This document shows positions 1 through 64,000 of a stretch of 64,000 nt of DNA, one piece after another. Numbering within the stretch: the first letter of the stretch is position 1; each line of letters opens with the position of its first letter. Source of the DNA: an uncultured Mesorhizobium sp. (GTDB lineage: Bacteria > Pseudomonadota > Alphaproteobacteria > Rhizobiales > Rhizobiaceae); the NCBI GenBank assembly GCA_965649745.1, contig CBFGLW010000002.1:31580-95579 (forward strand), in the 5' to 3' direction. Both the position numbers and the translations under genes were made by a program. Under the pieces are notes generated by a model. The model made no database searches. It saw only the letters and a program-made list of their open reading frames with translations, and was not told where the DNA came from.

Positions 1-383
1 GCGCCGAGCGCGACGTTGCTGTCTATCTCGACGGGGAGAAGGCGCTGGTCTGGTGGCACCGGAACGTGGCGCGTGCTCAGTATGGGTTGCAGGGTTGGCG
101 GCGGGCCAGAATCTACCCGGACTTCATCTTTGCTGTAAAACAATCCGACAAGACGGCCCGGATCACCGTGCTCGAAACCAAGGGCGACCAACTCGATAAC
201 CTCGATACGGCCTATAAGCGGGAAGTGCTCAAGGTGATGTCGGACAACTTTGCTTGGGACACGACGGTCCCCGCTGGGACGCTCGAACTGATTAAGTCCA
301 CAGGCGAAACAGTGGAATGCGCGCTGATCCTGATGAGCGACTGGCCGACCGAGTTGCCATCGCATTTGACTGTCGGCGCCTAG
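1..383 (+). CDS. 3' end of a larger gene cut by the window edge: helicase/restriction-type protein with a PD-(D/E)xK nuclease-like C-terminal tail
   Basis: The frame is open from nt 3 to TAG 381-383. The segment ...RIYPDFIFAV...ITVLETKGDQL... resembles a PD..(D/E)xK motif found at C-termini of type III res / DEAD-helicase-nuclease fusions. Recognition by eye only. Confidence 0.5.
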   Translation, partial: AERDVAVYLDGEKALVWWHRNVARAQYGLQGWRRARIYPDFIFAVKQSDKTARITVLETKGDQLDNLDTAYKREVLKVMSDNFAWDTTVPAGTLELIKSTGETVECALILMSDWPTELPSHLTVGA

Positions 384-891
384 CGGCGTTGATCGCCTCT
401 GAGGGCTGCGAGAGCAACATCAAGTATGTCACGCCGCGCGTGATGTTCAAGCTTTTCAAGCCTGTCGGCTGCTACGATTGTGAAGCGCTCCCCATGGGAG
501 CGTTCCAATTTCAACTGCGGCTTTGTTGTGAACAAAGTGGCAACATCTCTTGCAAACTGCTTCGCTCGTTCCCATTTCTATGCGGCCTCTGGAATTGGCC
601 AGTTGGCACGGTCGTTTGGACGGTCAACTGGAAACATGACTGCCGCGCAGGCCACGACGATTGTCATCGTCAGGCCGGCAAGGTCATTCCATGAGACTGT
701 GAACATAGTTCGCACTCCTACGGCTACACTATACCGCCATGCGTTTTAGAAACCCGCGTTGGGGGCAAGCCTGTTTGAGACAACGGGAAGAAGCCGACGG
801 ATAGAGGCGTGCGATTGGGGGGCGTTCGGCGTGAGCCGAGGTTCAGGGTTGGAGCCAGTCCCCCGATCACTGCAAAGATTTGGGGGAATAG
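384..891 (+). ncRNA. Hypothetical structured leader / RT-associated non-coding RNA upstream of the reverse transcriptase
   Basis: 508-nt gap with no convincing same-strand CDS. Local hairpins at 486-502 and 656-671. A C5 run (860-864) could pair with either G6 817-822 or G5 882-886, and the latter is the putative RT Shine-Dalgarno. Architecture is analogous to the ncRNA-upstream-of-RT layout of DRT2/DRT9. No transcript ends can be seen from sequence. Confidence 0.25.
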
Positions 892-2115
892 TTGGAACGC
901 GACTGGTTCAAGACACGAGGTTACCGCCACTTCGATGCGCCGGTTGGCCCGTCATATGCGGCCACTGTCTGCGACCCGAAGTTCGTTGCCAAGCATTCAT
1001 GGCTGCCGCTCATCCACTACGTCAAGCGTGTTAAACGCTATAAGAAAAAGGATGGCAAGACGGTCTATAAAGATCGTGACATCATGTTCGCGTCTCATCG
1101 AGACGCCTGTATTCTTGCGAAATATTCTTTTGATCTCGGCGGGATACTTGATCAGCACTATGAGAAGGCGGGCCTGAGCCGCCATGTCATCGCCTATCGG
1201 AAGCTGGGACGGGCAAACTATGACTTCTCTGCCGATGCCTTCCGCTTCGCCCAGAAGCATGAGCCGTGCGTCGTGCTGTGCTTCGATATCACCGGCTTCT
1301 TCGACAATCTGAATCACGCCATCCTCAAGAATCGGTTGAAGCATCTGCTTGGCGTCGATGAATTGTCGCCCGATTGGTACGCTGTGTTTCGTCACGTCAC
1401 CAAATTCAGCAAGGTGGAGCGTAAGGCACTTGAGGCGCATCCGGTGTTCTCGAAGCGGATCAAGGACGACACGCGTGAACCGCTTGCTACAATCGCTGAG
1501 CTTCGCAAAGCGGGCATTCCCGTAACCACCAACCCGAACAAGTTCGGCATCCCGCAGGGTACGCCAATTAGTAGCGCGTTTTCGAACCTCTACATGATGG
1601 AGGTCGACGCGGCGATGGCGAGCGCCTGTGCAAAGATAGGAGCTCTTTATCAGCGCTATTCCGATGATATCCTGATCATCTGCCCGCCAGACTTTGAAAA
1701 GCAAATCACCGACACACTTAAATCAGCCGTTACGGCCCACGATCTTGAGATCAAGGATGAGAAAACCGAGCGTGCCCTGTTCGGCCCCGGCAGCGATGAC
1801 ATTTTCCAGTACCTTGGATTCAATATGTCGAGTGCCGGAGCGATTATCCGTCCAACCTCACTGGCAAGACAATGGCGGAAGGCAAGGCGGGCCATCAAGA
1901 CCACGAAGCGTATTGGTGAAGAGGCCATAGCCGCTGGCCGGGCAGACAAGATTTATACCAAGCGGCTTCGGAAGCGCTTTGCTCCCGTTGGTGCGCGCAA
2001 CTTCTCCAAGTATGCCCGGCGAGCGGCCGACGCATTCGGATCGAAACGGATCGTGCGACAGGTGACGAGGCTAGAACGAATGGTTGATGAGGCCATTCGC
2101 GAAATGGATAAGTAG
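892..2115 (+). CDS. Stand-alone reverse transcriptase, UG/Abi (defence-associated, DRT-like) class, 407 aa
   Basis: RT motifs: FDITGFFDNLNH (motifs 1-2), GIPQGTPISSAFSNLYM (motif 4), YQRYSDDILIICP (YxDD, motif 5) and FQYLGFN (motif 7). The N-terminal GYRHFD and RDIMFASHRDACILAKY are typical of Abi/UG RTs. There is no retron VTG, no group II maturase/En domain and no fused effector domain. The only possible start is TTG 892, directly after an in-frame TAG. Confidence 0.88.
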   Translation: MERDWFKTRGYRHFDAPVGPSYAATVCDPKFVAKHSWLPLIHYVKRVKRYKKKDGKTVYKDRDIMFASHRDACILAKYSFDLGGILDQHYEKAGLSRHVIAYRKLGRANYDFSADAFRFAQKHEPCVVLCFDITGFFDNLNHAILKNRLKHLLGVDELSPDWYAVFRHVTKFSKVERKALEAHPVFSKRIKDDTREPLATIAELRKAGIPVTTNPNKFGIPQGTPISSAFSNLYMMEVDAAMASACAKIGALYQRYSDDILIICPPDFEKQITDTLKSAVTAHDLEIKDEKTERALFGPGSDDIFQYLGFNMSSAGAIIRPTSLARQWRKARRAIKTTKRIGEEAIAAGRADKIYTKRLRKRFAPVGARNFSKYARRAADAFGSKRIVRQVTRLERMVDEAIREMDK

Positions 2116-2325: not shown

Positions 2326-3492
2326 ATGCCTAACCTACGTCTTACCCGCCGCGCGATTGACGATATTCCGTTCGCTGCCAGCGGCCAGATCCTTTACCGC
2401 GATACGCTGCTTTCCGGTTTCGGCCTTCGGGTCGGAAGCCGCTCCAAGGTCTACTTCGCCGAGGGGCAGGTGAACCGTGACACCCGCCGCGTCACCATTG
2501 GTCGCGCGGACCTGTTTGCGCCGGAGGTGGCCCGCAAGAAGGCGCTGGCGCTGCTAGGCGAAATGGCCGAGGGCCGCAACCCCAACGAAGAAAAGCGCAA
2601 GGAGACGGTGGAACGCGTCACGCTGGCCGTGGCCTTCGAACGCTTCTTCGAGGCACGCAATAAGCTGTCACCGCACACTGTCACCAATTACGGGCGCACC
2701 GCCAAGCTCTACCTTAAGGCATGGCGCAAGAAGCCCATGAACCAAATCACCCGGCAAATGGTTCTGGCCAAGCATCAGGAGATTGCCAAGGCGCATGGCG
2801 AGGTGACGGCCAACAATGCGATGCGTCATCTGCGCTCGGTCTACAATTTCATTGCGGCCACGCAGGACGACTTCCCGCCGAACCCGGTGCTGATCCTTTC
2901 GCAGGCTCGCGCATGGTATCGCGAGCGGCGTCGGCAGACCTTAGTGACGGCGCTGGACCTGCCCATGTGGTGGAAAGCCGTCATGGCCGAACCGGACTAT
3001 TCCCGCGACTTTCTGCTGGCGGCACTGTTCACCGGGATGCGCCGGGGCGAGTTGATGAAGTTGCGCTGGGACAATGTGGACCTGCAAGCGCGGACCTTAC
3101 ACCTGCCTACCACCAAGAACGGCGATCCGCTGAATCTGCCGCTGTCGGCGTTCCTCGCGGACCTGCTGACCAAGCGCAAGGAGCAGTCAGAAGGCTCGCC
3201 TTGGGTGTTTCCCGGCCCCGGCAAGAATGGGCATCTGGTGGAGACCAAGAAATTCCTGCTCCGCGTCACCACAGGGTCGGGCGTCAGCTTCACCCTGCAC
3301 GATCTGCGCCGCACCTTTATCACCATCGCCGAAAGCCTCGACGTTCCCTACTACGCGCTCAAACGCCTGCTGAACCATCGCGCCAATGGCGACGTCACGG
3401 GCGGTTACATCGTCGTTAATGCCGAGCGACTGCGCGCTCCGGTGGAACTGGTTGCGGCACGGATATTGGAGTTGGCCAATGTCAGTCAGTGA
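2326..3492 (+). CDS. int: Tyrosine recombinase/integrase, P4-like with N-terminal Arm (DUF4102-type) DNA-binding domain
   Basis: N-terminus LTRRAIDDIPFAASGQILYRDTLLSGFGLRVGSRSKVYF. Catalytic signature: FTGMRRGEL (Arg), HDLRRTF (His-x-x-Arg), LLNHR...GGY (His, Tyr). SD CAGGAGG lies 6 nt before the ATG. Confidence 0.9.
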   Translation: MPNLRLTRRAIDDIPFAASGQILYRDTLLSGFGLRVGSRSKVYFAEGQVNRDTRRVTIGRADLFAPEVARKKALALLGEMAEGRNPNEEKRKETVERVTLAVAFERFFEARNKLSPHTVTNYGRTAKLYLKAWRKKPMNQITRQMVLAKHQEIAKAHGEVTANNAMRHLRSVYNFIAATQDDFPPNPVLILSQARAWYRERRRQTLVTALDLPMWWKAVMAEPDYSRDFLLAALFTGMRRGELMKLRWDNVDLQARTLHLPTTKNGDPLNLPLSAFLADLLTKRKEQSEGSPWVFPGPGKNGHLVETKKFLLRVTTGSGVSFTLHDLRRTFITIAESLDVPYYALKRLLNHRANGDVTGGYIVVNAERLRAPVELVAARILELANVSQ

Positions 3493-3985
3493 CTCCACCT
3501 ACCGAACAACTTTCGGCGAGGGATCAAGCGTGCTGGAACAGGTCCTCCTCGCCATCATCAACGCCCATACCGATGCCGAGACCGAGGGGCGTCAGTGGGA
3601 ACGACTGAACGCCGCGATGTCAGCATTGGTCGGGCCAGCGACTGCTCAAGAACGAAATCTGGAAAAGGCGCTGCTATTCATCGTACGCGAACGACAAAGG
3701 GAAGAATGTGATGTTGATATGCATGCTATTTCCTCGGGGCCAAGCGCCTCACGCCTAGCTACACGCTCTGTCCCCGAACTCGCTAGGCTTGCGGCAAAAG
3801 AGATTTTAGGCTGCGCGACGCCAGCCGAGAGGGTGCCTGCCGTCCATGCGCTCTGTACGATGTATCAATACCGGTTCGGAATCCATGCGCGGGAATACGA
3901 TGAGGCCCACGAAGCCCTTCAAGCTGAAGCGGTAAAGCACCTTTGCGACGAACTGGCAGAATGGGGCGTGCCGACCAAGGTCTAA
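3479..3985 (+). CDS. Hypothetical protein (168 aa), start overlaps the int stop by 14 nt
   Basis: ATG 3479 (MSVSDSTYR...) lies inside the last codons of int, suggesting translational coupling. No recognisable motifs. Confidence 0.5.
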   Translation: MSVSDSTYRTTFGEGSSVLEQVLLAIINAHTDAETEGRQWERLNAAMSALVGPATAQERNLEKALLFIVRERQREECDVDMHAISSGPSASRLATRSVPELARLAAKEILGCATPAERVPAVHALCTMYQYRFGIHAREYDEAHEALQAEAVKHLCDELAEWGVPTKV

Positions 3986-4275
3986 CTGAGGAAATTGCGC
4001 GGTTATGAATCAATCACTTAGCGCCTTTCTACTGGACCCATGTTTTATGTTGGCTGCGCTGGCTTGAAGCAACGACGTTCCTCTGACATCATGAACCTAG
4101 ATGCACTGACAAGCGTCTGCCGGATAGTCCGGTTACGGTGGGTGACCTATAGTATGGCCCCCATATAGCGGGTGAGACTCCCGGCCGAGGTCAAGAACGA
4201 TGACCGATGAAGTGAGAGCGGAGGCCTGCACCTCCCCTCCGCGCCTTGGCGAGGCGCTACTCAGAGGTCACCACA

Positions 4276-4560
4276 ATGCATGTGGAAACAGCATCGCGCG
4301 CCCGCTTTCGAGGCGCAAGTACTCCTGCCGAAATCTGCCAACCAGCTAACCCGGAAAAGCTCCTAACCACGGGACAGGTGGCGACCCTCACGGGGTTGAG
4401 TCAATCATACTTCGAAAAGGGCCGCATCTACGGCTATGGCCCCAGCTTTATCCGCTTTCGCCCTGAGTCACGAAGCGGCGCGGTTCGCTACCGCCTCAGC
4501 GCCGTTATCCACTGGCTCGAAGCATGCCAATGTAACCCGGAGGAGATGCGTCATGGCTGA
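4276..4560 (+). CDS. AlpA/excisionase-like helix-turn-helix DNA-binding protein
   Basis: LLTTGQVATLTGLSQSYFEKGRIYGYGPSFIRF...VRYRLSAVIHWLE matches the AlpA/MerR-like phage HTH pattern. SD AGAGG precedes ATG 4276; the alternative TTG 4246 is less likely. The stop overlaps the primase start (ATGGCTGA). Confidence 0.65.
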   Translation: MHVETASRARFRGASTPAEICQPANPEKLLTTGQVATLTGLSQSYFEKGRIYGYGPSFIRFRPESRSGAVRYRLSAVIHWLEACQCNPEEMRHG

Positions 4561-6847
4561 CCTTCTCCAACCCGATGCTCGGCAGGCGATCGCGTTCCTG
4601 CTCTGGCTGAATCCACAAGCGCCGCTTTACCTCGAAGCGCATGAAAGCGCCGGTGGTGCAAAGCCCAAGCCGAAAGAGTGCCCGGCTCATTCCGCCGACG
4701 CCGTCGCGCAACGTTTCGTCGCCGCCAACAATGGCGACGAGTTGCGGCGTAATCTATACTTCGTGCCCAATGCCGAACTGATGTCGGGCGGACGCGCAAA
4801 GGCTAATGTCTCGGCCTCGCGCTTCCTCTGGGTCGATCTGGACTGCAAGGACTATCCGGGCAGCGAGTCGGAGCAGAGCGACCGAATTCTTGGCTTACTA
4901 AGCGAAGACAAGCTGCGCCCGGCAGGCGTTCCGAAACCAACCGCCTTCTGGTTCACTGGCGGCGGTTATCAGGCGATCTGGCGCATGACCGAACCGGTGT
5001 CCGTCGAGGATGCCGAAGCCTACAATCGGGCATTGCTCGTGGCATTCCAGGGCGGATCCGGCACCTTCGACGCTGGGCGACTCTTGAGGCTGCCCGGAAC
5101 CGTCAACTGGTTGAACGACAGAAAGCGCGCGGCAGGCCGTGAGCCTGCCAAGGCTTTGCTTCTCGAGCCCGTCCCGCTCAGCGCCGCACCGAGGAACTAC
5201 ACGCTTGCCGATTTCAGGTTGCGTTTCGACAAGCCCGACTCATCTAGGGCCGATAGTAAGCCGATTATCAATCTTGACGACATCGAGGCGCTGCCTCTGC
5301 CAGATGACCGAGGCGAGGTGATACCCCTCGACCCAATTTGGTCTGAGGTCATCGTCTCGGGCAAGAACCCGCCCGACAAAAACTACCAGTCTCGCTCGGA
5401 ACTGGTCTTTGCCGCTACCCTCTGGCTGCTCGGAAACGATGTCGCGCCCGGTCATATTGTGTCGATCTTGACCAGCCCCGATCTCGGCATCAGTGCCCAT
5501 GTAAGGGAAAATCCAAACCCACAACGATATGCGCGGCGGCAAGTGGCGCGGGCGATGGAAACCATCGACCTACGAGGACGAGGATGGCCGAAGCTTGACC
5601 AGTATGGGCGTCCGGCGGCGAATGCGCCTGAGAATGTGCGGTTCGCTCTCGCCATGCTCGATGTCGATGCGCGGCGCAACATGTTCACCCACACCGACGA
5701 GGTGACTGGGCTGGGCCTAGAAGGCCGAGACATCTCCGACATCTGCGAAATCCTATGCAGCATTTTTGACCGCAGATTGGATTTCCGCGCCAGCGTAACC
5801 GCCATTCGACGCGAACTGATCACTGTCGCCTATGAGCGTGCTTACCATCCAGTCATCGACTATCTGGACGGTCTGGTATGGGACGGTGTTCCGCGTCTTG
5901 ACACATGGCTCAGGGACTACTGCGAAGCGGAGGACACCGAGCTCAATCGGGAATTCGGCGTGCGGTTCCTGGTTGGCGGCGTGAGACGGATCAAGCAGCC
6001 CGGCGTCAAGTTCGACACGATGCTGGTTCTGGAAGGCCGTCAGGGGGTCGGCAAATCGCGTCTGGCGGCACGACTTGCAGTTCGCGACGAATGGTTCTGC
6101 GGCAACCTGAACCTAAATGCGGACGCCAAGACCAAGGCCGAGCTTGTGTCCCGCGCGTGGATTGTCGAATGCCAGGAACTCGACGGCGCTCGCAAGGCGA
6201 CCTTAGATGCGATAAAGGCATTCCTCGCCACCCCTATAGACACCTATCGGCCTGCCTATGCCCACACTGCTGGTTCTTTCCCCCGGCATTGCGTGATCAT
6301 CGGCACGACGAACGAGGATGCCTATCTGCGCGATGCGACGGGAAACCGACGATATTGGCCGGTCAGGGTCGGCAGCATCGACATTGAAGCTTTCGGCCGC
6401 GACGTGCATCAGCTATGGGCCGAGGCGGTGGTGCGGGAGCAAGCCGGCGAACCGATAACCCTGCCTCGGCATCTATGGCAGGTTGCCGACGAGCTTCAGG
6501 CCAGCCGCATGATCGAGGACCCCATAGGCATCGTGCTGGAAGGCGCGTTCGGCGAGCGCACGGGGCGGGTATCTATGGAGAGCGTCAAGCTGCTTCTCGG
6601 CTACGAGGCCGGGCGCATGTCGGCCAGCGAATTCCAACGCATCACAGGCGCAATGACGGCGCTGGGATGGGGATATGGAACCCACAGGCTGCACGATCTC
6701 GGTCGTACAGGGCGAAGCGCCCGCAAGGGCTTTGCGCGCGGCAATGCCGACGAGCAGAGGACCGAATGGGTCGCGAAGCGCGTCGAAGGGGGCATCCCCA
6801 TTCTTCAGGCCGTAAGCGAACATACCGACGAAAGCGGCCCGTTTTGA
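4553..6847 (+). CDS. Primase/replication protein: N-terminal RepB'-like/AEP-type primase region plus C-terminal VirE-family P-loop NTPase
   Basis: SRFLWVDLDCKDYP (hhhDhD primase-type motif). The VirE-like block is VPRLDTWLRDYC...LVLEGRQGVGKSRL (Walker A)...CVIIGTTNEDAYLRDATGNRRYWPV. SD GGAGGAG lies 7 nt upstream of ATG 4553. Confidence 0.8.
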   Translation: MADLLQPDARQAIAFLLWLNPQAPLYLEAHESAGGAKPKPKECPAHSADAVAQRFVAANNGDELRRNLYFVPNAELMSGGRAKANVSASRFLWVDLDCKDYPGSESEQSDRILGLLSEDKLRPAGVPKPTAFWFTGGGYQAIWRMTEPVSVEDAEAYNRALLVAFQGGSGTFDAGRLLRLPGTVNWLNDRKRAAGREPAKALLLEPVPLSAAPRNYTLADFRLRFDKPDSSRADSKPIINLDDIEALPLPDDRGEVIPLDPIWSEVIVSGKNPPDKNYQSRSELVFAATLWLLGNDVAPGHIVSILTSPDLGISAHVRENPNPQRYARRQVARAMETIDLRGRGWPKLDQYGRPAANAPENVRFALAMLDVDARRNMFTHTDEVTGLGLEGRDISDICEILCSIFDRRLDFRASVTAIRRELITVAYERAYHPVIDYLDGLVWDGVPRLDTWLRDYCEAEDTELNREFGVRFLVGGVRRIKQPGVKFDTMLVLEGRQGVGKSRLAARLAVRDEWFCGNLNLNADAKTKAELVSRAWIVECQELDGARKATLDAIKAFLATPIDTYRPAYAHTAGSFPRHCVIIGTTNEDAYLRDATGNRRYWPVRVGSIDIEAFGRDVHQLWAEAVVREQAGEPITLPRHLWQVADELQASRMIEDPIGIVLEGAFGERTGRVSMESVKLLLGYEAGRMSASEFQRITGAMTALGWGYGTHRLHDLGRTGRSARKGFARGNADEQRTEWVAKRVEGGIPILQAVSEHTDESGPF

Positions 6848-6903
6848 CCGCACCGCGTTACCTGCACCGTGTAACCTAACAAGCCGCAAACCATTACCGG
6901 TTG

Positions 6904-6947
6904 GGCAGGGGGAGTTGAATACTCCCCCTGCCTCTTTTGTGTGTTTT
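6904..6947 (+). terminator. Rho-independent terminator after the primase gene
   Basis: GGCAGGGGGAGT-TGAAT-ACTCCCCCTGCC followed by TCTTTTGTGTGTTTT. Confidence 0.8.
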
Positions 6948-7112
6948 GAGCCTTAAGTTACAGGCATAGGTAACGGCATTGCAGCCGTGTGGCGACGGGG
7001 TTACTCCGACGCCTTCAGACGGCCCCTCAGAGCGCCGCTGGCGCGGGTTTGGGCGTATTTGGGGTAAAGGCCGCAGCCACGTCCGGCGGCCCTCTGATGG
7101 CCTTCGACGCCG

Positions 7113-7439
7113 CTACCCCGCAAACGCCTTCAGCATCTTTGCGGCACGGTCAAGCTGATCTTCGTTCAGCCGGGAGAGGGTGCGGTGAATATCGGTTAGA
7201 AGCCTTGCCCGTTCTCCGGTGCCCGGCATAGCGTCGGCGCCGAACAGAACGGGTGCGGGAATGTCGAGTGCGGACGCAATCTTCTCTGCCGTCTCAAACA
7301 GTGGTGCGGCGACACCCCGCTCGATCTTACCGATTGTCTCGCGCGAAATGCCCGTCTGACCGGAAAGCTGTTCAAGGGTCCAGCCTTTAGCCTTCCGGTG
7401 ATGGCGCACATTCGCGCCGAAAAGACGTTGAAGCTCCAT
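7113..7439 (-). CDS. XRE-family helix-turn-helix transcriptional regulator (cI-like repressor)
   Basis: MELQRLFGANVRHHRKAKGWTLEQLSGQTGISRETIGKIERG is a classic XRE HTH. The start is taken at ATG 7439, not the upstream in-frame ATG 7481 (MSSPL...) at the head of the track ORF. Confidence 0.85.
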   Translation of the reverse strand: MELQRLFGANVRHHRKAKGWTLEQLSGQTGISRETIGKIERGVAAPLFETAEKIASALDIPAPVLFGADAMPGTGERARLLTDIHRTLSRLNEDQLDRAAKMLKAFAG

Positions 7440-7484
7440 ATGCGCACCTCTTTCCAACAGAGGCGGCAAAGGGCTGCTCAAATC

Positions 7485-7520
7485 GAGAAATGAGAACTTT
7501 TCATTCTCAAAATTGAGAAC
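7485..7520. promoter_or_regulatory. Candidate operator array in the divergent XRE / membrane-protein promoter region
   Basis: The half-site TGAGAAC occurs at 7491-7497 and 7514-7520. The inverted copy TTCTCA is at 7504-7509, giving TGAGAA-N7-TTCTCA. The surrounding region is AT-rich. Confidence 0.45.
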
Positions 7521-7962
7521 TATAACATCTCATTCATGGAAGTCAGATGCTGTGGTTCTGCTCGTGATGGTAGTTAATCTGCTCCTTGCTGCTTTACACT
7601 GGCTCTTGCTGATCTTCTTCGGCGGTCAGGCAATTGTCTTCGTCGGCCTCATGCTGTGGACGATCTGGACCGACGCGATAAAGCCAAGGCTGATCCCCGC
7701 CGACGACATCGCCCGCGTGGCTGACCACATCATCGCTAGTTACCCCGACCCTGAACTTGAGGCTTTCGCCCGCCATGAGCGCGCGTGGTACGACAGCGAC
7801 GGCGCGGAGCAGACCTATTGGTATCGGGTGCGGAAGGCCGTCAGGCGGCGGCTGAAGGCCGCTGAGCCGCGTCAATCGAAGTCAAACAGCGGGCCGGTGC
7901 CCGTCGCACGGCCGCGCGACTTACGCTCGCGATCTTCCAGCACCTCGCGCCACATCTCATAG
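7513..7962 (+). CDS. Small membrane protein (2 predicted TM helices), start uncertain (TTG 7513, GTG 7552 or ATG 7567)
   Basis: Hydrophobic segments AVVLLVMVVNLLLAALHWLLLIFF and QAIVFVGLMLWTIW are followed by a charged soluble tail. The last ~30 codons are antisense to the 3' end of the 7872-8615 gene. Confidence 0.5.
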   Translation: MRTITSHSWKSDAVVLLVMVVNLLLAALHWLLLIFFGGQAIVFVGLMLWTIWTDAIKPRLIPADDIARVADHIIASYPDPELEAFARHERAWYDSDGAEQTYWYRVRKAVRRRLKAAEPRQSKSNSGPVPVARPRDLRSRSSSTSRHIS

Positions 7963-8615
7963 GTCGACGCGACCATCCGTTCCAATTCCTCACGGGAGTA
8001 AAGCTTAATACCTTCGTCCGTGTAGAGCCTGACCGTGCGCCGATCATCGGACGGGTCGCCAAACTGCACAATGGTCAACCGAACGTCGGCAAAGTCCTCG
8101 TCAGCGGCTCGGATGCGCTCGTGCATCATCGAGAATGCGAACCTGCGGCCCTCGGCGGTCAAGCCTCTGGTGCGGCGCGGCTCGATGAACAGGGCGCTCG
8201 CCTGCTCATCGATGGCGAGAATCATTGGCAGCCAGAAGCTGACTTTCTTCCCCATGCCCATCGACAGCGGTAGGAACTCATGCCGCCGCCCGAAGACCCG
8301 GCCAGAAGTCGCGAAATCGTGCAAGCCAAGAGCTACGCGCCGGTTGTAGGTAAACTCCTCGTCCGACTTGCTGCGCTTCCCCAACTCGGCCTCGATCACG
8401 GCCCAGGGCGTCGGATCGGCTACGCCCAAATCCAAATCGGGCTGGATGTTGAAGATGTCGGAAAAGCAGGAGCGCACGGGCTTGTAGGAGAAGGTCGAGA
8501 AACCGCCCTTCATCTGTTCAAGGCTCTTACGCTTCATATCGTCACGCTGAGGCGCGATGCGCGCAAGATCAATGTCAGGCAAAAGGCGTGTCGTCACTGG
8601 GCGGTTCTTCTGCAC
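7872..8615 (-). CDS. Unassigned 247-aa protein, candidate toxin partner (PanT-like) of the upstream Panacea-domain gene
   Basis: Same strand as 8575-9129 and immediately downstream. It overlaps that gene by 41 nt if GTG 8615 is the start, or leaves a 37-nt gap if ATG 8537 is the start. I recognise no family motif. The C-terminus is highly charged and ends GTGPLFDFD. Confidence 0.6.
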   Translation of the reverse strand: MQKNRPVTTRLLPDIDLARIAPQRDDMKRKSLEQMKGGFSTFSYKPVRSCFSDIFNIQPDLDLGVADPTPWAVIEAELGKRSKSDEEFTYNRRVALGLHDFATSGRVFGRRHEFLPLSMGMGKKVSFWLPMILAIDEQASALFIEPRRTRGLTAEGRRFAFSMMHERIRAADEDFADVRLTIVQFGDPSDDRRTVRLYTDEGIKLYSREELERMVASTYEMWREVLEDRERKSRGRATGTGPLFDFD

Positions 8616-9129
8616 GAGGATTAATGCCGACCGACACTTTGTGGTGCCGGAATCGCTCTAAAATCACATCCTCGGGTATCCGCATCCCGAAAGCAATATC
8701 TGTTCGCGCTTTGTCCACGACTACGGACCACGGCGAGTCCTTCGCGTGCGAGAGATCGACAAGCCGCCCGGGCGGAAGGTGCCCGTATGATCTCATAACG
8801 TCAGACACGAGGTCGATGACCTGGAGGTCTGCCGGTTTGGGGAGGTCGCGCGTCCGACCGGTAAGGGGGTCTTTCGCCACCGCCCGATTGATGATCGGTG
8901 CAGACCCGGAAGGCTTGAACGCACGGTAGACGGCTGGATGCACGGGACCATATTGCCAAGCCTCGAAGTAGCCCGACACGAGCGGTCGTTTCGTTTTGGT
9001 TAGGTGTATGCCGTGAGCGAAGTAGAGCAGCTTTTGAAGGGCAAGGTTCGTGATCTTCCAGCCGCGCCGGTCAGCCTCGTCCAGCATGAGGTTGGCGACG
9101 GCTCTCGGATCATATGGCCCACCGGTCAT
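8575..9129 (-). CDS. Panacea-domain (DUF4065, SocA/GepA-like) antitoxin-type protein
   Basis: YDPRAVANLMLDEA...ITNLALQKLLYFAHGIHL...YFEAWQYGPVHPAVY matches the DUF4065 hallmark (KLLYy.qG ... AW.yGPV...vY). Confidence 0.75.
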   Translation of the reverse strand: MTGGPYDPRAVANLMLDEADRRGWKITNLALQKLLYFAHGIHLTKTKRPLVSGYFEAWQYGPVHPAVYRAFKPSGSAPIINRAVAKDPLTGRTRDLPKPADLQVIDLVSDVMRSYGHLPPGRLVDLSHAKDSPWSVVVDKARTDIAFGMRIPEDVILERFRHHKVSVGINPRAEEPPSDDTPFA

Positions 9130-9160: not shown

Positions 9161-9236
9161 TGGTGCCGCTTGCGTGACTCGAACACGCGACCCCATCATT
9201 ACGAATGATGTGCTCTACCGACTGAGCTAAAGCGGC
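9161..9236 (-). tRNA. tRNA-Thr (anticodon CGU), CCA encoded
   Basis: The reverse complement folds as a cloverleaf: acceptor GCCGCTT/AAGCGGC, D stem GCTC/GAGC, anticodon stem CATCA/TGATG with loop TTCGTAA, T stem GCGTG/CACGC, then A-CCA. Confidence 0.9.
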
Positions 9237-9333
9237 TTAACCCTTCACACACGGCCATACTATGGCCCTACTAACTTACACTCACCAGCCCCAACTCACT
9301 GGCTTTACACCTCATTCTCTAGCGGACCCGCTA

Positions 9334-9372
9334 ATTACGAATGATGTGCTCTACCAACTGAGCTAAAGCGGC
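9334..9372 (-). pseudogene. Truncated copy of the tRNA-Thr 5' half (positions 1-39, ends just after the anticodon loop)
   Basis: 38/39 identity to 9198-9236, with one D-loop difference (G9220 versus A9356). There is no 3' half. Confidence 0.85.
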
Positions 9373-63128: not shown

Positions 63129-64000
63129 ATGCAGGAGATCGTCCTCAAAAACGCGAAACTGGTGTTCGAAAACGAAATCGTTTCCGGCTCCGTGCTCGTC
63201 CGTGACGGTCTGATCTGCCAGGCCGACGGCGGTTCGCATATGGGCGGCGAGGACATGGAAGGCGATTATATCGTTCCCGGCCTGGTCGAATTGCATACGG
63301 ACCATCTGGAATCCCATTACTCGCCCCGGCCCGGTGTCAGGTGGGACAGCATGGCCGCCCTGCAGGCGCATGATGCGCAAGTGGTCGGCTCTGGAATCAC
63401 CACCGTGTTCGACTGCCTGCGGCTGGGATCGGACGAGGATGGCGGCTTCCAGAAAGGTGAGATGCGCGCTATCGGCGACGCGATCGAACGGGCCGGCAAT
63501 GAAGAGCGGCTGCGCGCCAGTCATCTGATTCATCTGCGCTGCGAAGTGTCGGCCGGCAACGTGCTGGAGCATTTCGAAGATTTCCGCGGCGATCCGCAGG
63601 TGCGCTTGGCCTCGCTCATGGACCATGCTCCGGGCCAGCGGCAGTTCGCGACGCTCGATCAGTACGTCCTCTACTACAAGAAGAAAGTCGGCCTCAGCGA
63701 CGCGGAATTCGAACGCTTCATGGTGCGTCGTCAGGAAGATTCGGCCAGATATTCGGCGGGCAACCGCATGGCCATCGCGCGGGCCTGCAACGATCGCGGC
63801 ATCGCAATCGCCAGCCATGACGACGCGACGCTTGAGCATGTTGAGGAATCAAAGGCCTTCGGCGTGCGGCTGGCGGAGTTCCCGACCAGCGTCGAGGCGG
63901 CACAGGCGTCGCATGAAGCCGGCATGTCTGTCATGATGGGCGCTCCCAACATCGTGCGCGGCAAATCCCATTCCGGCAATATCTCGGCGAAGTCGCTGGC
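63129..64000 (+). CDS. phnM: Alpha-D-ribose 1-methylphosphonate 5-triphosphate diphosphatase PhnM (3'-truncated by the window end)
   Basis: MQEIVLKNAKLVFENEIVSGSVLVRDGLI...YIVPGLVELHTDHLE (amidohydrolase HxH-type). The frame stays open to nt 64000, so it is not in the ORF track. Confidence 0.85.
   Translation, partial: MQEIVLKNAKLVFENEIVSGSVLVRDGLICQADGGSHMGGEDMEGDYIVPGLVELHTDHLESHYSPRPGVRWDSMAALQAHDAQVVGSGITTVFDCLRLGSDEDGGFQKGEMRAIGDAIERAGNEERLRASHLIHLRCEVSAGNVLEHFEDFRGDPQVRLASLMDHAPGQRQFATLDQYVLYYKKKVGLSDAEFERFMVRRQEDSARYSAGNRMAIARACNDRGIAIASHDDATLEHVEESKAFGVRLAEFPTSVEAAQASHEAGMSVMMGAPNIVRGKSHSGNISAKSL

Follow-up and report, generated by a model that had tools for sequence, protein, structure and literature searches.

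The mechanism of DRT2 was published in 2024 for KpnDRT2, the DRT2/UG2 system of Klebsiella pneumoniae (Tang et al. PMC11100668; Wilkinson et al. PMC12039810; PDB ID: 9C0I). In the published system, a noncoding RNA (ncRNA) carries a template between two ACA triplets; from the first of these the reverse transcriptase (RT) jumps back to the second, and the complementary DNA (cDNA) grows as a concatemer. Each repeat has a length divisible by 3, the antisense strand holds a stop-free open reading frame (ORF), neo, and at every junction a -35 element from one end of the repeat meets a -10 element from the other across a 17-base-pair (bp) spacer (PMC11100668; PMC12039810). In KpnDRT2 the ncRNA is processed into a molecule of its own, with its 3′ end serving as the primer for the cDNA, a hydrophobic bias has been reported for the published Neo, and the papers on the Kpn clade describe the flanking ACA as conserved. 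Tang et al. found neo across diverse DRT2 clades, noted that it is harder to annotate in divergent ones, and raised alternative mechanisms (PMC11100668). Here we describe a locus in a 64,000-nucleotide (nt) stretch of DNA from an uncultured Mesorhizobium sp. (assembly GCA_965649745.1, contig CBFGLW010000002.1; the whole stretch is called the window below), where an RT gene and the leader before it very probably form a complete DRT2/UG2 system of an alphaproteobacterial (alpha) clade, including the sequence signatures of a hidden neo gene. As the DRT2 mechanism itself is already published, what the window adds is a lineage with a GUU jump motif, a Neo repeat of 43 amino acids (aa) and an RT-13 scaffold.

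The initial annotation of the stretch had proposed a single-gene RT of the UG/Abi class with a structured upstream ncRNA, possibly DRT2-like, and had called for a profile search of the RT, an alignment of the upstream region with a covariation test, and a search for a stop-free frame around a circularised leader segment. The profile search leads to Drt2: the PADLOC Drt2 model PDLC03757 matches the RT at 1.5e-130, compared to 1e-25 for the next family (UG17) and 3.7e-12 for Drt9, and the NCBIfam Drt2 equivalog NF041746 scores 392 bits against a cut-off of 390. In a sequence search of the PDB, the best matches are the KpnDRT2 RT chains (9c0i_A, 2e-61), with residues 4–401 of 407 aligned. By these three independent profile or sequence tests the RT is a member of the Drt2/UG2 family. 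As described initially, the 407-aa protein encoded by the ORF at 892–2115 (+) carries YSDD and lacks an effector domain, RVT_1 being the sole clear Pfam domain; the minor Pfam matches are two, a marginal one to the viral RdRP_1, which covers the same palm region, and another that stays below the cut-off. The proposed start, TTG 892, lies directly 3′ of an in-frame TAG (889–891), and homologues in 29 loci have a start codon (ATG, GTG or TTG) at or beside the equivalent position, about 4 codons 5′ of a conserved W, so that the alignment supports TTG 892 as the real RT start. There are 1,982 relatives of the RT in the protein database at E ≤ 1e-20, the closest from Neorhizobium, Brucella, Kaistia, Bosea and Bradyrhizobium. 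The genes flanking the RT in the window (the C-terminus of a type III restriction enzyme and an integrase) are not conserved partners across loci, and there is no fused or adjacent effector.

Among the loci found by scanning species-representative genomes, the RT closest to that of the window (86% identical) belongs to Brucella oryzae (L001). Its gene has an in-frame TGA four codons in (L001 3986–4000) and the annotated protein is 343 aa long, with the ncRNA and neo template intact; a pseudogene, a sequencing error and a downstream restart are all possible.

We collected 80 loci encoding relatives of the RT, 29 from the alpha clade and 51 others. The gene upstream of the RT ends at 383, and the resulting gap of 508 nt had been taken as a leader over its whole length. 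The gap is real, but only about 330 nt of it are conserved: when the upstream 517 nt of the window are aligned with those of 19 alpha-clade loci (20 aligned), conservation begins abruptly at 549 with CTTGCA and runs to ~880. The part before it (384–548) is an unconserved spacer, and two mechanical ORFs on the same strand (317–694 and 480–749) straddle the boundary and are not gene-like. One of the two hairpins pointed out initially (486–502) exists and lies in this spacer; we considered it as a terminator of the upstream restriction gene and rejected the idea, as it is neither called by the terminator scan nor conserved. A sequence profile of the conserved leader has a single match in the window (546–897), matches all 29 alpha-clade loci, and matches none of the 51 others. 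The elements at 549–577 are probably a promoter driving the ncRNA, and the RT too, a role suggested by their sequence and conservation. The predicted ncRNA folds with a minimum free energy of -120.5 kcal/mol (z = -2.67). Its 3′ part matches the full 67-nt model (1–67) of Rfam RF03017, "RT-13 RNA", at 73.7 bits (gathering threshold 69.1; E = 4e-14), ending 19 nt 5′ of the RT start. At the gathering threshold, a scan of alpha-clade loci places the same motif just 5′ of the RT in most of them.

The search for a circular stop-free frame was positive for the segment 613–741, where a promoter, a ribosome-binding site (RBS) and an ATG are reconstituted as well. Two copies of CGUUU, at 613–617 and 742–746, are spaced exactly 129 nt apart, with the GUU core kept at both sites, and an independent scan recovered the GTT microhomology across the clade. 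The circularised reverse complement of 613–741 reads ...AGTTGACC-GTCCAAACG/CATGGCGG-TATAGT-GTAGCCGT-AGGAG-TGCGAACT-ATG TTC ACA..., the slash standing at the 613/741 junction. The junction thus reads TTGACC-17-TATAGT followed by AGGAG, 8 nt and ATG, with the spacer made up of 9 + 8 = 17 bp across the two template ends; a 17-bp spacer across the junction requires a unit of 129 nt, the distance between the two CGUUU copies. The ATG lies in the sole frame that is open around the circle, which reads MFTVSWNDLAGLTMTIVVACAAVMFPVDRPNA-WRYSVAVGVRT-M..., and the Neo repeat peptide MFTVSWNDLAGLTMTIVVACAAVMFPVDRPNAWRYSVAVGVRT has 43 aa and a mean hydropathy of +0.73. The promoter scan found no intact sigma-70 site here in the linear genome, as is expected for a split promoter. 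Templates bounded by ACA were also considered (417–543, 532–634 and 634–703, all with stop-free frames) and rejected: 384–548 is unconserved, and none of the three spans the conserved promoter elements.

In the linear genome, the window has a 45-aa mechanical ORF at 578–715 (-), and in Brucella loci a 42-aa minus-strand gene has been called at the corresponding position (L081 7687–7815 (-)). Both read from the template into the 5′ handle of the ncRNA and stop there, and they appear to be linear genomic shadows of neo; small "hypothetical proteins" located 5′ of and antisense to drt2 could flag neo templates.

We assessed the conservation of neo on 29 aligned alpha-clade ncRNAs, the window included, with L027 as an extra locus. 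The repeat length is 123, 126, 129 or 132 nt in all 29, and 141 nt in L027, always a multiple of 3. The neo antisense frame is open in 29/29, compared to 0/29 and 1/29 for the other two antisense frames, and the clade consensus at the junction is TTGACA-17-TATAAT, about 8 nt, GGAGG, 7 nt and ATG. An unsupervised scan that asked for a microhomology of 3 nt, a length that divides by 3, a circular frame without stops and a promoter across the junction recovered 613–741; among 605 other tiles of the window it fired once, and among 500 shuffles 9 times. The other match in the window (63141–63285) lies inside an amidohydrolase-like coding region and was set aside as chance. In 19 of the 29 loci one sense-strand frame of the template likewise runs around the circle without a stop; rather than being a second ORF, this probably reflects the antisense-frame effect that is usual for GC-rich coding sequence.

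The same 29 ncRNAs were used for a structural model, built with RNAalifold and pair counting and including three helices added by hand. The alignment and covariation test bears out a structured RNA: within the region conserved from 549 to ~880, the model has 87.8% of cells paired and compensatory changes at 47 of 56 pairs, with none of 500 shuffles reaching as high and slid controls giving 31–48% pairing. One helix joins both ends of the template and thereby closes it into a loop; its 3′ strand (720–725) is the best-supported partner of the 5′ template boundary. We also looked for a basal stem pairing the second GUU with the bases just 5′ of the template, as an analogue of SL2, and a column scan gave no convincing signal. 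The second of the initially noted hairpins (656–671) is present and falls within the template; it is only half-conserved, with 51% of cells paired over the clade. Further 3′, a five-pair pseudoknot links the loop of the 3′ hairpin to a segment upstream of the scaffold stem, and the window itself contributes a change there, with A-U where the clade consensus has G-C. The conserved loop of RT-13 is explained by this pairing with 751–755, a segment that lies outside the Rfam model. The features of the locus and its surroundings are collected in Table 1.

Table 1. Features of the drt2 locus and its neighbours in the window. Percentages are aligned cells paired; compensatory changes were counted over the 29 aligned ncRNAs.
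Feature	Position	Strand	Remarks
Type III restriction enzyme (Res) C-terminus	1–383	+	PADLOC REase_III 3.4e-20, model positions 762–878 of 883; outside the DRT2 system
ncRNA promoter, -35 element CTTGCA (putative)	549–554	+	CTTG nearly invariant, T551 invariant in 20 aligned loci
ncRNA promoter, -10-like element CCATTT (putative)	572–577	+	C572, A574 and T577 invariant or nearly so; 16–17 nt after -35
DRT2 ncRNA (predicted)	585–876	+	~290 nt (~292); both ends predicted from the limits of conservation
5′ handle hairpin	585–607 (585–587 with 605–607; 590–592 with 599–601)	+	93–99% paired, compensatory changes
Template-closing helix	610–615 GGUCGU with 720–725 ACGGCU	+	76% paired; 5/7 compensatory; 0/500 shuffles as high
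Template	613–741	+	129 nt, or 43 minus-strand codons; repeat unit of a predicted cDNA concatemer
Jump motif 1, CGUUU (core GUU)	613–617	+	G614 and T615 invariant, T616 nearly; counterpart of Kpn ACA-1
neo promoter, -35 TTGACC	622–627	-	Near 3′ end of cDNA repeat; plus-strand GTCAA (623–627) almost invariant; clade consensus TTGACA
Small hairpin around neo ATG	700–703 with 709–712		Supported in the 29-ncRNA model
neo start codon ATG	704–706	-	Stop-free frame; same position in ~27/29 members
neo Shine-Dalgarno AGGAG	715–719	-	GGAGG-like run 7–8 nt 5′ of ATG in most clade members
neo promoter, -10 TATAGT	728–733	-	Plus-strand ACAyTATAC 726–734; clade consensus TATAAT
Jump motif 2, CGUUU (core GUU)	742–746	+	G743 and T744 invariant, T745 nearly; counterpart of Kpn ACA-2; directly 3′ of template
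Pseudoknot	751–755 AACCC with 846–850 GGGUU (3′ hairpin loop)	+	100% paired, 29/29; 4/5 compensatory
Scaffold stem	757–761 with 795–799	+	92% paired; compensatory at 5/5 pairs
Variable hairpin inside scaffold stem	769–774 with 783–788	+	Poorly aligned, 62% paired
RT-13 three-way-junction 3′ scaffold	807–873	+	Rfam RF03017
RT Shine-Dalgarno GGGGG	882–886	+	5 nt 5′ of TTG 892; G-rich runs at same place in homologs
drt2 RT gene	892–2115	+	407 aa, YSDD active site, no accessory domain
Integrase	2326–3492		Downstream of RT
VapE-like primase/helicase protein	4436–6847		Downstream of RT
ORF	7872–8615	-	Position of gene with SocB Pfam match in Brucella loci
Helix-turn-helix protein and SocA/Panacea	8575–9129 (SocA/Panacea)		Further downstream
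tRNA-Thr(CGT)	9161–9236	-

Set beside KpnDRT2, the window locus has a matching layout. The RT is a single-domain protein homologous over its full length (2e-61), and the ncRNA, on the same strand and upstream, is ~280–290 nt long in both; the template occupies bases 29–148 of 280 in KpnDRT2 and ~29–157 of ~292 in the window, and the 3′ domain has 132 nt and ~135 nt, respectively. In both systems a 3-nt direct repeat flanks the template, the repeat unit has a length divisible by 3 and the antisense frame contains no stop; the split -35 and -10 elements rejoin at 17-bp spacing and are followed by an RBS and an ATG; and the repeat peptide is hydrophobic. Both also have a pseudoknotted 3′ scaffold and a template-closing helix, that of the window resembling the "template hairpin" of Wilkinson et al. 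(PMC12039810). On the other hand, the active site is YSDD in the window and YCDD in KpnDRT2, the repeat has 129 nt (43 aa) instead of 120 nt (40 aa), the 3′ scaffold matches RT-13 whereas Kpn-type loci match RT-12, and the alpha-clade ncRNA profile has no match in the loci of other clades. The differences from KpnDRT2 (the GUU jump motif, the 43-aa repeat and the sequence of the RT-13 scaffold) are at the level of lineage.

RT-13 itself comes from Weinberg et al. 2017 (PMC5737381), who described the motifs RT-1 to RT-19 near RT genes with no function assigned. As an orphan motif, RF03017 covers only the 3′ three-way junction, which in the window is one domain of a ~290-nt DRT2 ncRNA; we found no mention of RT-12, RT-13 or their accessions in the literature searched. 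A more distant likeness is to telomerase, in which the RT also recopies a template within the RNA, delimited by a stem and a pseudoknot, and a short alignment repeat repositions the product. This analogy was drawn by Wilkinson et al., who regard the likeness as convergent (PMC12039810). Unlike in telomerase, the template is 129 nt long and not 4–8 nt, and the product is a gene and not a chromosome end.

The sequences show that the RT belongs to the family, that the RNA is conserved and covaries, and that every sequence signature of the hidden gene is there. They suggest how the system would work, though for the ends of the RNA, for priming and triggering by phage, and for cDNA synthesis and toxicity we infer from the work on KpnDRT2. 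The promoter at ~549–577 would transcribe the ~290-nt ncRNA (~585–876), probably together with the RT messenger RNA, and the RT would bind this ncRNA via the 5′ handle and the pseudoknotted 3′ scaffold and reverse-transcribe the 129-nt template. On reaching the CGUU at the 5′ end, the end of the nascent cDNA could pair anew with the second, identical copy of CGUU that directly follows the template on its 3′ side, and a restart from there would give head-to-tail repeats. Once the cDNA is double-stranded, each junction would join TTGACC and TATAGT with the 17-bp spacer into a sigma-70 promoter followed by AGGAG and ATG. Since 129 = 43 × 3 and the frame has no stop, Neo would be open-ended, and its transcription and translation would yield a hydrophobic repeat protein arresting the infected cell.

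Several observations weigh against such an assignment. The NF041746 score is only 2 bits over its cut-off, and the closest RT relatives, mostly 407 aa long, are annotated generically as "reverse transcriptase domain-containing protein". As flanking repeat, the window has (C/U)GUU and KpnDRT2 has ACA, and both promoter hexamers of the window are one base off consensus. Neo shows no codon-position periodicity (entropies 1.40, 1.36 and 1.31) and its central residues are not conserved, so that the case for coding rests on the maintenance of the frame and not on protein conservation; for a test of periodicity the central region has diverged too far. Two members, L010 and L015, lack the canonical GGAGG-ATG at its usual position, having kept the open frame, repeat length and promoter, which suggests either decay or an alternative start. 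Decay does occur in the clade, as seen in these two members without the ATG and in the stop in the L001 RT.

One alternative is that the DRT2 copy of the window has itself lost its function, is decaying and rides passively on a genomic island. The L001 stop, the missing neo ATG of L010 and L015, and the one mismatch in each window hexamer would all fit such a copy, but the RT ORF of the window is intact with its catalytic YSDD, and so are all RNA helices, both jump motifs, the frame, the RBS and the ATG; we consider a decayed copy improbable.

A second possibility, first raised by the initial annotation and able to coexist with a DRT2 system, is that the leader is mainly a translational switch, in which the C-run at 860–864 would alternate between the G-run at 818–823 and the RT Shine-Dalgarno sequence at 882–886. 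The first pairing is borne out: it is the outer stem of Rfam RT-13, with compensatory changes at 6 of 6 pairs, in agreement with the Rfam consensus. The complementarity to the Shine-Dalgarno sequence exists too, and in homologs a G-rich Shine-Dalgarno sequence likewise follows the scaffold. However, any Shine-Dalgarno sequence complements a CCUCC-like run, so this complementarity is not diagnostic, and because the C-run sits in a covarying helix the proposed sequestering of the RBS is left without specific support. The processing of the KpnDRT2 ncRNA into a separate molecule also speaks against a switch as the main role, which we judge unlikely.

Less probable still is a different type of RT-plus-ncRNA system, whether one making a homopolymer like DRT9 or one with a new RNA-templated product, in which the neo-like signature would be a coincidence. 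The UG group could not be assigned in the first reading, which had left room for another RNA-templated system, the jump motif is GUU and not ACA, and Tang et al. point to harder Neo annotation and alternative mechanisms in divergent clades (PMC11100668). The DRT9 (UG28) and DRT10 (UG17) systems do share with the window a stand-alone Class 2 UG RT and an adjacent structured ncRNA templating DNA, but their products, as far as the part of the literature we consulted describes them, are protein-primed homopolymers or short tandem repeats with no 129-nt coding repeat, and their profiles are far weaker on the window RT (Drt9 3.7e-12 and UG17 1e-25, compared to 1.5e-130 for Drt2). Moreover, the neo signatures are kept in 29/29 loci and their combination is rare by chance; the RT and the neo signatures together are those of DRT2. 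Finally, an origin of the RT from a retron or a group II intron or its remnant, hinted at by weak RT-domain matches and by homologs annotated "group II intron reverse transcriptase domain-containing", is effectively refuted by the profile scores (70.8 bits for the group II equivalog against a cut-off of 300, and 56 against 235 for retron St85, both failing), together with the lack of any maturase or endonuclease domain in the Pfam scan of the RT, the lack of an Rfam match to an intron or msr/msd RNA family at the locus, and KpnDRT2 as the best solved relative.

In a comparison across clades, the loci L029–L080 supplied the non-alpha jump motifs and the matches to RT-12 and RT-6. The alpha clade has the jump motif GUU, repeats of 123–141 nt and Rfam RT-13; the gamma/beta clade has ACA, 105–138 nt and RT-12; a Pseudomonas/Marinobacter subclade has CAA, 132 nt and RT-12 (L030); and Clostridia have AUUG, 141–159 nt and RT-6. 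Since GUU, ACA, CAA and AUUG were found clade by clade with one scan, the jump sequence is specific to the clade and does not define the family. In the RT-12 consensus, a GCGGC just 3′ of the jump motif pairs with a GCCGC in a hairpin loop, which is the pseudoknot topology of the alpha ncRNA. With a shared pseudoknot topology and differing motifs, the architecture of DRT2 ncRNAs is therefore common and their sequences are clade-specific, in agreement with the 13 groups that Mestre et al. needed for the RNAs upstream of UG2.

No alpha-clade RT is present among the rows of Table S1 of Tang et al. that the comparison covered. The alpha clade may tentatively belong to the "divergent clades" reported as hard to annotate for Neo, a reading we regard as possible rather than likely; if so, neo would be explicitly delineated there for the first time. 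The jump microhomology appears evolvable, and RT-13, RT-12 and RT-6 appear to be domains of DRT2 ncRNAs. A bolder version, offered with more reserve, holds that GUU and the template-closing helix reflect a mechanistically distinct mode of jumping or priming.

The surroundings agree with the defence-island context proposed at first, with the C-terminus of a type III restriction enzyme upstream and an integrase/VapE/SocAB block and a tRNA-Thr downstream. Three Brucella loci whose RT is 85% identical share the whole block at ~79% nucleotide identity, from 530 in the window to beyond the tRNA. They differ 5′ of 530, their type III restriction-modification system there being encoded on the opposite strand. 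Such a system thus lies directly 5′ of DRT2 both in the window (1–383) and in Brucella (L081 2764–7581), and because the two have opposite orientations and no detectable nucleotide similarity, the association appears, from the sequences, to have arisen independently.

The region 2326–9129, which the three Brucella genomes share along with the DRT2 module, looks like a P4-like integrative island beside the tRNA-Thr, and its left boundary coincides with the ncRNA promoter (~530). No att-type direct repeat of the tRNA-Thr 3′ end was found anywhere in the window. The 5′ 48 nt of the tRNA gene (9189–9236) are duplicated 136 nt further on (9325–9372, 92% identity), a copy that is kept in the Brucella loci and may be the scar of an old integration event. 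More widely, tRNA genes with six anticodon identities lie within the ~4-kb flanks of 8 of the 25 alpha-clade loci scanned; such varied flanking tRNAs fit an island-borne, mobile defence cargo.

For the family, the locus leaves the understanding of DRT2 unchanged and extends it to a new lineage, whose GC-rich Neo variant of 43 aa can serve in comparative experiments. Gene callers do not see the neo template and close RT homologs carry generic annotation only, and the GUU...GUU spacing, the 17-bp junction spacer and the pseudoknot together make an annotation recipe for loci of Hyphomicrobiales/Rhizobiales and Sphingomonadales, which number in the hundreds. Three orphan motifs of Rfam, RT-13, RT-12 and RT-6, are placed in a functional context, and the variation of the jump motif between clades supports the view that a short microhomology, and not ACA itself, directs template jumping.

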